DNA of 35,098 nt, taken from positions 686-35,783 of the forward strand of contig DMUF01000037.1 of the NCBI GenBank assembly GCA_003476445.1, read 5' to 3'. Source of the DNA: Gammaproteobacteria bacterium (GTDB lineage: Bacteria; Pseudomonadota; Gammaproteobacteria; Pseudomonadales; Azotimanducaceae). Below are positions 5,825 to 9,115 of this stretch, piece after piece (position 1 is the stretch's first letter; every line of letters begins with the position of its first letter). The notes under the pieces were generated by a model. That model ran no database searches, was not told the DNA's origin, and worked only from the letters and a program-made list of their open reading frames with translations. Made by a program: the position numbers and the translations under genes.

Positions 5825-6861
5825 TCAGCACCACCATCGAGTGTCAGGCGCCGGGTAAGGTCGTTCTGTGGGGCGAGTACGCAGTGCTTGCCGGTGCGCC
5901 GGCGCTGGTGGTCGCCGTCGACCGCGTTGCACGCTGCCAGCTACGGGTTCTGCGTTCCTCGGTGAAGCCCACGGCTGAACGTTCACCCTGGGAGTTCACC
6001 AGCCGCGGCTTCAGCGCCGAGCCAACGGGGCTATCACGCAGCGCTCTGCTCGGCCCCGATGCGCCTGCTGCGGCAAGCGCGGCCCGCATCGCCTGGCACG
6101 TGCTGCAGGCATTGCAGCTGTACTCAGAGGACGCGGCTCGACGCCTGCCATCCCATGCCGACGTGCTGCTGGATACCAACGGTTTCTTCCATCGCGGCGT
6201 CAAGCTTGGCGTTGGGTCAAGCGCGGCACTGACGGTCGCCTTGTATGGAACGTTCTGCACGCTGATCGGCATTACGCCCGACTTTGGTCAGGCTGTTGCC
6301 ATCCACAGGTCAATTCAGTCGAGTCATGGCAGCGGCGTCGACATTGCCGCTGCCTGGTACGGCGGGCTGATCCGTTTCGAGCGCAACGCGAGTAATGCCG
6401 CCGCGCTGCCGAGCGTCGCGCCCGCAGCCGCTCTCGATGGCATCAAGATCCAGTATTTCTGGACAGGTCATCCCGCGAGCACCACAGCGCATCTCGAGCG
6501 CTTCTCGCGGTGGCAAGAAGAGGGCGATACCAATGCGCTCACCGCCCTGGTCGCCGCATCGCGCGCACTTTTCGCCGCAAGCGATACCCTGCGCGCGCTC
6601 GAGCACTACATTGCCTGCCTACGCGCACTGGATACCAGCGCACAACTCGGCATCTACGACGCGAGCCACGCGACGATGCACGCGCTTGCGCAATCCTGCG
6701 GGGTGCTCTACAAACCCTGCGGCGCCGGTGGCGGAGATATCGGTGCCGCCTTCTCTGATGACGCCGAACGACTCGAACGGTTCACGCTTAAGGCAGCCGA
6801 AACCAGCGTGATACCCCTTCCCCTGGAGACTGCTAGTCATGGCATCCGCACCAGCCACTGA
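5821..6861 (+). CDS. mvaK2: phosphomevalonate kinase (GHMP kinase, ERG8 type)
   Basis: Motifs APGKVVLWGEYAVLAGAPALVVAVD, KLGVGSSAALTVAL and YKPCGAGGGDIGAAF. Its ATG overlaps the mvaD stop (ATGA at 5821-5824). Confidence 0.85.
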   Translation: MISTTIECQAPGKVVLWGEYAVLAGAPALVVAVDRVARCQLRVLRSSVKPTAERSPWEFTSRGFSAEPTGLSRSALLGPDAPAAASAARIAWHVLQALQLYSEDAARRLPSHADVLLDTNGFFHRGVKLGVGSSAALTVALYGTFCTLIGITPDFGQAVAIHRSIQSSHGSGVDIAAAWYGGLIRFERNASNAAALPSVAPAAALDGIKIQYFWTGHPASTTAHLERFSRWQEEGDTNALTALVAASRALFAASDTLRALEHYIACLRALDTSAQLGIYDASHATMHALAQSCGVLYKPCGAGGGDIGAAFSDDAERLERFTLKAAETSVIPLPLETASHGIRTSH

Positions 6862-9115
6862 ATCCGGCGCGCGTATACCCAATTTCTTCAAGATGAGCGT
6901 GAGCGAGCGGGTAACCGCCCTGCATCAGCGCGGGCTGCTCTCGAACGCAGATCTCGACGCGCTCACGAGCGGCGATCATCAGCTGCGTCTTGCGGTTGCA
7001 GATCGCATGATCGAGAACGTGCTCGGCGTCTTCGGCCTGCCACTGGGTGTTGCGCTCAACTTCCTTATCAACGGCCGCGACTACGTGATACCGCTGGTGG
7101 TGGAGGAACCCTCCATCGTCGCCGGTCTCTCGGGAGCCGCGCGCATGGCGCGTCTGAGTGGCGGCTACGAAGCCTCGAGCACGCAGCCGATCCTGATCGG
7201 TCAGGTTCAGGCCGTGAACATCGACGATGTCGATCGAGCAAAAGCTGCTTTGCTCGCGCGCCGAGAAGAGATCCTTGCTCTCGCCAACAGCCTGCACCCC
7301 AAGATGCAGGCCCGGGGCGGCGGCGCCATCGATATCGAGGTGTTCCATTACCACGCACCTGAAGACGGTCGGCAAATGGTGGTCCTCCACCTCCTGGTCG
7401 ATACGCGCGACGCGATGGGCGCCAACCTCGTCAACACCATGTGCGAAGGCATCGCATCGCTCGTGGAAACGATCACGGGCGGCAAGGTCTTCCTGCGCAT
7501 TCTCTCGAACCTGACGGACCGCGCCATCGCGCGCGCACGCGTGCGCATCCCGCCACAGAATCTAGAGGGCAAAGGATTCACCGGGGAAGAAGTACGCGAT
7601 GGCATCATCCTTGCGAATGATCTGGCCCTTGTTGACCCCTACCGGGCAGCGACTCATAACAAGGGGATCATGAACGGTATCGATGCGGTAGCGATCGCCA
7701 CTGGCAATGACTGGCGTGCAATCGAGGCCGCTGCGCACGCGTATGCCGCCCGCTCGGGCCGGTACTGCGGGCTCACACGCTGGTACCGAAACGAAGCGGG
7801 CGATCTCGTGGGTGAGATCGAGATACCCATGAAGGTAGGCACCGTGGGCGGATCACTCGAAACCAACCCGAGCGTGCGCATCAATCACCGACTGCTAGGC
7901 TCACCGAACGCGCCTGAGCTTGCGGGAATCATGGCCGCAGTGGGTCTTGCCCAGAACTTTGCGGCATTGCGGGCGCTTTCCACCGATGGCATTCAGCAGA
8001 ATCACATGACACTGCACGCACGCAGTGTAGCCAGCACCGCGAATGTCCCTGACCATCTGTTCGATGCGGTGGTGGAGGCGTTGATCGAAAGCGGCGAGAT
8101 CAAGGTTTGGAAGGCGCAGGAGATCGTAACGAAACTGACTCGCGGCAGCGGTAACACGTCTGCAGCGGCGGAGCGCAGCAGCGCGAGCGGCAAGGTGATT
8201 CTGCTGGGCGAGCACGCGGTCGTGTACGGGCGCCCCGCCATCGCGCTGCCAATCCCCCTGGCGGTAGAGGCAATCGTACGACCCGGCGGCAGCGGAGCGA
8301 GTCTTGTCATTCCGCGCTGGGGTGTGGAACAGAAAGTACGCGGGCCTGGCAGCCAAGGGCTGACCGGGATGCTTGGCAGCCTGCTCAAGACGCTGGGGCT
8401 CGCGGACACCGGCATGACCATCGAGGTCATTCCGCACGTGCCTCGAGCCATGGGGCTCGGCGGGTCAGCCGCGCTTGCAGTCGCCATCGTACGGGCGCTC
8501 GACCGCGCTTTTCATCTCGGGCTTGATGACGAGGCAGTCAACGCTCACGCCTATGAGTGCGAACGCTTCGCACACGGCACGCCTTCCGGGATCGACAATA
8601 CGCTCGCCACCTGGGGCCGGCCGATTTTGTTTCAGCGCGCACAAGGTCAGCCCACCGACGACCGACCGCAGCTCGGACCCAACCGCGTGGAGTCACTTGT
8701 GATTGGAGCGGCACTGCCGCTGGTGATTGGAATCACGGGTAAGGAGAGCCTTACCGCCAACACGGTCGCACGGGTACGCGCGATTCATACGGCGCGGCCT
8801 GCACGCTACGACGCCCTTTTCGATCAGATTGCGAGTCTCGTGAGATCCGCACAGGTCTCGCTGCGCGAGGGCAACCTGGTCGAGCTCGGGGAACTCATGA
8901 ACCTGTGTCAGGGCTATCTGAATGCGCTGCAGGTGTCGTCACCCGAACTTGAAGAGCTGATCCACATTGCGCGGATGAACGGGGCGATCGGCGCCAAGCT
9001 GACCGGCGGTGGCGGTGGCGGCTCGATCGTGGCCCTGTGTCCGGGGGAACAAGAGGCGGTGGCTGCTGCCATGCAGCGCGCCGGCTATCGGGCACTCACG
9101 GTAACAGTGGGATAA
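6839..9115 (+). CDS. bifunctional class II HMG-CoA reductase (aa 1 to about 435) / mevalonate kinase (aa about 449-758) fusion protein
   Basis: One uninterrupted 758-codon frame. HMGR motifs: [61 protein letters not shown] and HMTLHARS. Linker [15 protein letters not shown] at about 8141-8185. MVK motifs: [31 protein letters not shown] and [14 protein letters not shown]. ATG at 6839 has GGAGA 9 nt upstream and overlaps the preceding gene by 23 nt. Confidence 0.9.
   Translation: [758 protein letters not shown]

Follow-up and report, generated by a model that had tools for sequence, protein, structure and literature searches.

A fused class II HMG-CoA reductase and mevalonate kinase, recurrent among bacteria, in a mevalonate operon of a gammaproteobacterium

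Class II HMG-CoA reductase (HMGR) and mevalonate kinase (MVK), the enzymes of two consecutive steps of the mevalonate pathway, are encoded end to end in a single open reading frame (ORF) in a stretch of 35,098 nucleotides (nt) of a Gammaproteobacteria bacterium (Azotimanducaceae; assembly GCA_003476445.1, contig DMUF01000037.1, positions 686 to 35,783), the whole of which is referred to here as the window. The locus raises the question of whether this ORF represents a genuine bifunctional enzyme, in which direction its reductase would operate, and what the physical linkage of the two modules might bring to the cell. The analyses point to an enzyme of the classical mevalonate pathway that is both bifunctional and biosynthetic, in which a class II HMGR and a GHMP-type MVK are joined by a flexible tether and which is encoded by the last gene of a translationally coupled operon, a reading to which a probability of roughly 0.85 is assigned.

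The fusion ORF (6839..9115, + strand) runs unbroken from an ATG start through 758 amino acids (aa) to a stop codon, and can be divided into an HMGR module (residues 1-433; 6839..8137, +), an interdomain linker (residues 434-450; 8138..8188, +) and a GHMP mevalonate kinase module (residues 451-758; 8189..9112, +). In the Pfam analysis of the 758-aa protein HMG-CoA_red matched residues 21-394 (E 1.7e-107; PF00368, 360 bits against a cut-off of 27), and GHMP_kinases_N and GHMP_kinases_C matched residues 513-590 and 673-750, with both PF00288 and PF08544 located in the kinase half. The NCBIfam equivalog for class II HMGR, TIGR00532, scored 407 bits on the N-terminal half (cut-off 260) and the MVK model TIGR00549 scored 222.8 bits on the C-terminal half (cut-off 163), which is far beyond chance, and the class I HMGR model TIGR00533 reached 35.6 bits only. 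No thiolase-family match was found in the protein with Pfam or NCBIfam, the HMGR beginning at approximately residue 11. The ATG at 6839 appears well supported as the start of translation, because a Shine-Dalgarno-like GGAGA (6825..6829, +), read from the sequence within the end of the preceding gene, is positioned 10 nt upstream, and because RIPNFF (residues 12-17), a conserved motif, can be aligned to the N-terminus of class II enzymes of solved structure. All motifs quoted in an earlier note, which was made from the DNA letters and their translation, were present in the ORF, including EEPSIVAG (89-96), a 13-residue motif at 191-203, THNKGIMNG...GNDWRAIEA (272-297) and HMTLHARS (389-396) in the HMGR half, as well as motifs of 14, 12 and 10 residues in the MVK half (451-464, 538-549 and 720-729).

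Comparison of the HMGR half by phmmer yielded end-to-end alignments with the Pseudomonas mevalonii enzyme 1QAX (E 2.2e-122) and the Delftia enzyme 6DIO (E 4.4e-123). The alignment to 1QAX placed P. mevalonii Glu83, Lys267, Asp283 and His381 at E90, K275, D291 and H389 of the fusion, and these four residues were unchanged in 46 of 46 fused homologues and again in an alignment of 75 sequences. The dimerisation motif ENVLG occupies residues 59-63, its E59, N60 and V61 being invariant, and the C-terminal flap of the reductase (approximately residues 385-438) was modelled by AlphaFold2 as three helices (385-400, 405-418 and 423-438). Foldseek alignments of the HMGR domain with the P. mevalonii enzyme spanned the chains including the flap, with template modelling scores (TM-scores; TMt) of 0.86-0.93.

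The kinase half was aligned by phmmer with the Leishmania major MVK 2HFS (E 7.9e-36), and also with the MVKs of Methanosarcina mazei, Staphylococcus aureus, rat and Streptococcus pneumoniae. It contains the motif I lysine K452 (GKxILxGEH), the motif II serine S543 (GLGSSAA-like), the catalytic Glu/Asp pair E575/D586 (E...SGxD) and motif III (KLTGAGGGG-like) at 720-728. Among those of the 46 fused homologues that cover the column, K452, E458, S543, E575, S583, D586 and the KLTGxGGGG loop 720-728 were invariant, which was repeated in the 75-sequence alignment, and Foldseek comparison of the kinase domain with MVK structures gave TMt values of 0.78-0.86. Loss of essential catalytic residues, which the earlier note had raised as a possible objection, was found in neither half upon alignment of the 46 fused homologues, and both halves are apparently catalytically intact as judged by these alignments. 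The central proposal of that note, a complete class II HMGR joined to a complete MVK, is therefore upheld by Pfam, NCBIfam, phmmer and residue conservation alike.

The genes directly upstream of the fusion encode the subsequent steps of the pathway. Operon gene 1 encodes diphosphomevalonate decarboxylase (MVD; 4763..5824, +), with a TIGR01240 score of 243.6 bits (cut-off 171) and the Pfam domains MVD-like_N and MDD_C; its longest ORF starts at the TTG at 4763, the gene callers on identical contigs begin at window position 4859, and the protein is called as 321 aa on L081-L084. The second gene encodes a divergent GHMP-type phosphomevalonate kinase (PMK; 5821..6861, +), which TIGR01220 matches over its full length (residues 6-339 of 346; E 6.5e-23), but at 81 bits, below the cut-off of 166; GHMP_kinases_N likewise remained sub-threshold (20 bits, cut-off 22.3), and identical contigs carry no precomputed Pfam match for this protein. 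Most fused loci have PMK conserved in this position, directly before the fusion. An ATGA at 5821-5824 combines the PMK start with the MVD stop, and the PMK stop falls 23 nt inside the fusion ORF, overlaps that point to translational coupling of MVD-PMK-HMGR::MVK. The occurrence of separate PMK-like and MVD genes in the same operon supports, by context, the predicted specificity of the fused kinase for the 5-hydroxyl of mevalonate. A promoter and terminator consensus scan of 3500-10500 yielded nothing above shuffled expectation, and no operon-boundary evidence was derived from it.

In the proposed scheme, the N-terminal HMGR module would reduce HMG-CoA to mevalonate, probably with NADPH, and the C-terminal GHMP kinase module would convert mevalonate to mevalonate 5-phosphate at the expense of ATP, such that the operon MVD-PMK-HMGR::MVK would carry HMG-CoA to isopentenyl diphosphate (IPP). 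Phosphorylation driven by ATP beside the reductase would pull the reversible reduction forward, and the likely benefit of the fusion would be 1:1 co-expression and co-localisation of both enzymes.

The fusion is widely distributed. Seventeen contigs from independent assemblies, namely freshwater and other metagenomes from ENA and one NCBI metagenome-assembled genome (MAG), carry the identical 758-aa protein as a called gene, all with the same neighbours. The best 120 clusters listed (90% identity) from 5.8 billion proteins were 72-99% identical, all measured 730-769 aa, and all contained PF00368, PF00288 and PF08544, several of them being encoded on contigs as long as 3.6-5.5 Mb. When a profile was built from 17 diverse fused sequences and searched, a further 120 clusters were listed (56-63% identity), all of them fused, with these three domains at about 750 aa, and including cultured Dyella, Dokdonella, Wenzhouxiangella, Litchfieldella and Nevskia. 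These database clusters stem from NCBI, JGI, ENA, Logan and Tara. At the species level, the two halves were compared separately by BLAST with stop-to-stop ORFs of GTDB contigs, one genome per species, and in 45 of the 80 best loci both halves were found in one ORF. The 45 fused loci belong to Pseudomonadales MAGs (among them two finished chromosomes), Rhodanobacteraceae/Dokdonella, Woeseiaceae, Salinisphaera and a Rhodospirillaceae MAG, as well as to Calditrichaceae, Balneolaceae, Acidobacteria, Methylomirabilota, a Myxococcales MAG and a Nakamurella MAG, and include the isolates Cryobacterium levicorallinum and C. psychrotolerans. Finally, when 1.84 billion 50%-identity representatives were scanned exhaustively with HMMER, approximately 20 of the 150 top ones were HMGR::MVK. 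The rarity that the earlier note had implied is contradicted by these data, since hundreds of clusters and at least 45 species-level genomes from several phyla, including cultured isolates, encode the fusion; domain-architecture searches establish it as common, while no characterised member was found in the literature searched.

The Cryobacterium stop-to-stop ORFs are long (L039:10606-13308, 893 aa; L042:10294-13329, 1004 aa), with the HMGR starting from residues 136 and 254, respectively. They overlap the upstream PMK ORF, and their Pro/Ala-rich linkers are the longest seen (33-39 aa). Instead of true N-terminal extensions, the additional length most likely stems from read-through of upstream high-GC DNA.

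The canonical gene order of fused loci is MVD-PMK-HMGR::MVK-IDI1, where IDI1 is type 1 IPP isomerase, often with HMG-CoA synthase (HMGS) on the flank; most of them keep MVD-PMK-HMGR::MVK, with or without IDI1. The clade to which the window belongs (the window, L001-L005 and L038) is without a downstream IDI1. The NUDIX gene at 15286-15960 (+), 6 kb downstream, was considered as a type 1 IPP isomerase and ruled out, as it is MutT/NAD-diphosphatase-like, and the IDI of this clade must consequently lie elsewhere.

The segment that joins the two modules in the 46 homologues is bounded by two conserved edges, EIKVWKAxEI where the HMGR flap ends and an 11-residue motif in the first kinase strand. 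Between them the linker measured 13-39 aa and showed no sequence conservation, its composition being dominated by A, E, G, T, S and P. The 15-residue linker quoted in the earlier note is indeed present, at residues 434-448, although its position is nt 8138-8182 instead of approximately 8141-8185, a displacement of 3 nt. The junction DNA (8100-8220) contains no in-frame start codon with a ribosome-binding site for separate translation of the kinase. An AlphaFold2 model of the monomer, built from 75 aligned sequences, had a mean predicted local distance difference test score (pLDDT) of 81.7 but a predicted TM-score (pTM) of 0.55, so that both domains are modelled with confidence and their mutual arrangement is undefined. 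The low-confidence segments of the model correspond to the dimerisation motif, which needs the partner subunit (51-67), the flap hinge with His389 (384-389), and a loop of the kinase (604-612); in the linker, residues 436-443 had a pLDDT below 50. With the last flap helix ending at approximately residue 438 and the first MVK strand starting from residue 447, the model predicts a disordered tether of only about 8 residues. Linker variability, low pLDDT at 436-443 and the pTM of 0.55 are all consistent with a flexible tether between the modules, and in the proposed scheme this short, unconserved tether emerges from the final helix of the HMGR's mobile catalytic flap. No PDB chain spanning both domains was retrieved in the Foldseek search, in which TMq was at most 0.50.

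This geometry leaves room for a more ambitious proposal, in which a kinase tethered to the flap couples the two active sites mechanically or allosterically: flap opening would hand mevalonate straight to the kinase, feedback inhibition of the kinase would be passed on to the reductase, or both, and the fusion would constitute a functional unit. The flap bears the catalytic His389 and the kinase is predicted to hang about 8 disordered residues from its end, the shortest homologue linkers measure only 13-16 aa between the conserved edges, and the stepwise addition of further modules in HMGR-MVK-IDI1 and PMK-HMGR-MVK proteins (see below) suggests selection for physical association. However, a linker that is unconserved and varies threefold in length is typical of a passive tether, the AlphaFold2 model provides no confident inter-domain packing, and the existence of a fusion in the reverse order, MVK::HMGR, speaks against a geometry-specific mechanism. 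Such coupling is therefore considered unlikely. If it were true, the series HMGR-MVK, HMGR-MVK-IDI1 and PMK-HMGR-MVK would represent bacterial evolution towards a multi-enzyme "mevalonate megasynthase".

The direction of the reductase reaction was approached through the cofactor helix. NADH-dependent enzymes carry Dx(V/L)xxxL and NADPH-dependent enzymes carry (H/Y)xSxxxR in this helix (PMC13488460, citing Miller & Kung 2018). In the fusion, H153-P-K-M-Q-A-R159 (7295..7315, +) aligns with D146-Q-L-L-N-S-L152 of P. mevalonii, and hence positions 1 (His) and 7 (Arg) are of the NADPH type, with Lys instead of Ser at position 3. Among the fused homologues the His was present in 44 of 46 and the Arg in all 46; the H...R frame HP[K/R/N]MVAR was found in 49 of 64 fused sequences, and the NADH D-type in a single one of the 64. 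In solo HMGR relatives the cofactor helix is mostly D-type or other. In the HMGR of Ruegeria, replacement of the equivalent Asp by Lys increased NADPH activity 53.7-fold (PMC12292504). Moreover, Wenzhouxiangella, Woeseia and Dyella caseinilytica, for which the fusion is present at the genus or family level, are classed as mevalonate-only (MEV-only) in Table S1 of a 2026 review (PMC13001223). The NADPH-type helix frame, the MEV-only carriers, the operon with MVD and PMK, and the absence of an HMG-CoA lyase among the window genes scanned around the fusion together make the biosynthetic direction much the likeliest, and the fusion is most likely a housekeeping biosynthetic enzyme rather than "degradative" as it is named. 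The biosynthetic role anticipated in the earlier note is thereby supported, albeit indirectly.

Several observations weigh against a biosynthetic, NADPH-dependent bifunctional enzyme. The curated model that names the HMGR half, TIGR00532, bears the label "degradative" and is the best-scoring NCBIfam model, and this half is overall closest to the NADH-dependent enzymes of P. mevalonii and Delftia, which are also its nearest solved structures. The canonical Ser at position 3 of the cofactor motif is replaced by K/R/N/Q, which is why NADPH preference is put forward as probable only, and the fused enzyme could use both NADH and NADPH. The MEV-only classification was matched to the fusion by genus or family, and not by the particular genomes in the table. 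HMG-CoA synthase, thiolase and IPP isomerase were not found in the 35-kb window, and the synthase and the isomerase must be encoded elsewhere in the organism. The monomer model carries no information on the fit of the tethered kinase with the obligate HMGR dimer, and the activities of all HMGR-MVK members are predicted from sequence.

The label and the nearest structures could be taken to favour a catabolic role, in which the reductase oxidises mevalonate to HMG-CoA as a carbon source, as in P. mevalonii, and the kinase serves salvage or regulation. The fused kinase and the reductase would, however, be competitors for mevalonate, MVD and PMK are the neighbouring genes, no HMG-CoA lyase domain was found in the genes scanned within approximately 10 kb, the NADH-specifying Asp is replaced by His in a motif that ends in Arg like that of NADPH enzymes, and the MEV-only listing of carrier genera implies that the pathway is needed for IPP; a catabolic function is accordingly regarded as very improbable. 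That adjacent HMGR and MVK genes were merged through loss of a stop codon, a frameshift or chimeric assembly, which might be suspected from the abutting separate genes in Virgibacillus, Oceanobacillus, Paucisalibacillus and Archangium and from the preponderance of metagenome assemblies among the relatives, is of negligible probability, as the same protein occurs on 17 contigs from independent samples, hundreds of clusters from five sources share the architecture with finished chromosomes and the genomes of isolates, linkers of 13-39 aa never disrupt the frame, none of the 46 fused homologues has a relic start Met at the beginning of the MVK domain, and there is no homopolymer run in the junction DNA (8100-8220).

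The origin of the fusion, single or multiple, was addressed in a neighbour-joining tree of 211 HMGR domains, the unfused kinases being too few for an informative MVK tree. In this tree 55 of 64 fused sequences were placed in one almost purely fused clade, and the other 9 fused representatives were scattered on long branches, with backbone branch lengths of 0.005-0.03. The reverse-order MVK-HMGR protein P0141 (704 aa) must represent an independent fusion event. The representatives found show that fusions involving class II HMGR are frequent. P0122 (952 aa) and P0123 (928 aa), both 50%-identity representatives, are HMGR-MVK-IDI type 1 proteins with all three modules above curated cut-offs (for P0122, TIGR00532 380 bits, TIGR00549 231 bits and TIGR02150 151 bits), an arrangement in keeping with the loci, where IDI1 is usually the gene right after the fusion. 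On a 220-kb contig, P0285 (1131 aa) reads PMK-HMGR-MVK; it could be genuine, or the overlapping PMK and HMGR::MVK genes could have been merged by a frameshift. P0151 and P0167 are PMK-like-HMGR proteins. In P0156, P0157, P0159, P0179 and P0183 class II HMGR is C-terminally fused to downstream isoprenoid enzymes, the partners in this set being polyprenyl synthase plus squalene/phytoene synthase (1162-1453 aa), SQS_PSY plus an epimerase/3-beta-hydroxysteroid dehydrogenase (3-beta-HSD)-like domain, an epimerase alone, or a squalene-hopene-cyclase-like domain. Approximately 35 of the 150 top representatives are HMGR::X proteins in which X was not assigned, and MvaE-like representatives form a separate architecture with a C-terminal HMGR that starts at approximately residue 313-384.

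Downstream isoprenoid enzymes were also encountered as neighbours of the fused operon. In L006 (17005-20442, +), squalene epoxidase and oxidosqualene/squalene-hopene cyclase domains are found in one stop-to-stop ORF of 1146 aa, an arrangement also present in L004, L016, L017, L020, L046, L052 and L055, and a 3-beta-HSD/epimerase-like gene is located near this ORF; both adjoin the fused mevalonate operon in several gammaproteobacterial loci, which suggests that the fused operon feeds sterol or triterpenoid synthesis in those loci. None of the squalene epoxidase, cyclase or 3-beta-HSD-like genes was found in the window.

The operon of the window is flanked by two medium-chain dehydrogenase/reductase genes, both kept on all identical contigs. 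One is divergently transcribed and resembles NADPH-dependent curcumin/alkenal reductase (3714-4733, -; 370 bits, below the cut-off of 440), and the other, downstream of the fusion, encodes a Zn-dependent alcohol dehydrogenase (9238-10329, +). Further upstream, the longest ORFs of a MATE transporter (1352-2713, +) and an acyltransferase (2517-3677, +) overlap by about 200 nt; on identical contigs a later start is called for the acyltransferase (334 aa), which reduces its overlap with the MATE ORF to about 40 nt. Genes for enoyl-CoA hydratase and acyl-CoA dehydrogenase, located at 19.9-27.3 kb, were considered as leucine-catabolic suppliers of HMG-CoA and rejected, having generic sub-threshold matches only (to a pimC-like dehydrogenase and to generic crotonases). 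Two subunits of the ordinary gcvPA/gcvPB type make up the glycine-cleavage P protein (31874-33268 and 33265-34743, +), their genes overlapping by 4 nt.

The fusion is a real, recurrent and apparently uncharacterised variant of bifunctional mevalonate-pathway protein. As the earlier note had surmised, no characterised HMGR-MVK fusion was found in the accessible literature: the table of pathway enzymes in a 2026 review gives MvaE and IspDF as natural fusions, and no description of a natural HMGR-MVK fusion was found in the full-text literature searched, the coverage of which leaves out most subscription journals. Hoshino & Gaucher (2018) mention fused partners only as having been trimmed ahead of tree-building. 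In the clusters listed, the database names of the fusion are "hydroxymethylglutaryl-CoA reductase", "hydroxymethylglutaryl-CoA reductase, degradative" or "hypothetical protein", and never bifunctional. If the biosynthetic reading is correct, hundreds of "HMG-CoA reductase, degradative" names are misleading, as the proteins would probably be biosynthetic and supply the MVK of the cell, and automated pathway reconstruction can score carrier genomes as lacking MVK. It would also provide a naturally optimised fusion of the rate-limiting and the next mevalonate step for metabolic engineering, where such fusions are built artificially, with the natural triple fusions HMGR-MVK-IDI1 and PMK-HMGR-MVK extending the toolbox, as well as a test case for whether an irreversible kinase tethered to a reversible reductase alters flux or regulation. 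The fusion overturns nothing known about the mevalonate pathway and holds no surprise in mechanism; its use lies in annotation and engineering.

The closest solved relatives of the HMGR half are the enzymes of P. mevalonii (1QAX) and Delftia acidovorans (6DIO), at approximately 50-53% identity, which share the catalytic tetrad and the flap but are stand-alone proteins of approximately 428 aa with an NADH-type helix D-x-L-x-x-x-L, that of P. mevalonii being catabolic, whereas the fusion has the helix H-P-K-M-Q-A-R and a kinase following the flap. In the mvaAB catabolic system of P. mevalonii an HMG-CoA lyase adjoins the NAD+-dependent HMGR; for the fusion no lyase was found among the genes scanned around it, and the NADH-specifying Asp is absent. 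The stand-alone MVKs of L. major (2HFS), M. mazei (4HAC/6MDE) and S. aureus (2X7I) have the same fold, catalytic Lys/Ser/Glu/Asp and glycine-rich loops, and the fused kinase differs from these by an identity of only approximately 30%, the absence of a start codon of its own, and a loop at 604-612 modelled with low confidence.

In Firmicute operons (Virgibacillus, Oceanobacillus; L047-L053) the order is HMGR-MVK-MVD-PMK, MVK coming immediately after HMGR on the same strand, with its start codon abutting or overlapping the HMGR stop. These genes specify two separate polypeptides, identity between this MVK and the fused kinase is only 30-35%, the remaining gene order differs, and the cofactor helix of the HMGR is the canonical YPS[I/M]VxR. 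Abutting separate HMGR and MVK genes, as in Bacillaceae and Archangium, plausibly represent the pre-fusion state. Among established fusions, IspDF is likewise a widespread natural bacterial fusion of two isoprenoid-precursor enzymes, but it belongs to the methylerythritol phosphate (MEP) pathway, has unrelated folds and catalyses non-consecutive steps. MvaE of Enterococcus faecalis, an acetoacetyl-CoA thiolase joined to a class II HMGR, resembles the fusion described here as a natural bifunctional biosynthetic protein encoded in a mevalonate operon; in MvaE, however, the thiolase is N-terminal and the HMGR C-terminal for the non-consecutive steps 1 and 3, whereas in the present fusion an N-terminal HMGR is followed by a C-terminal GHMP kinase for the consecutive steps 3 and 4.

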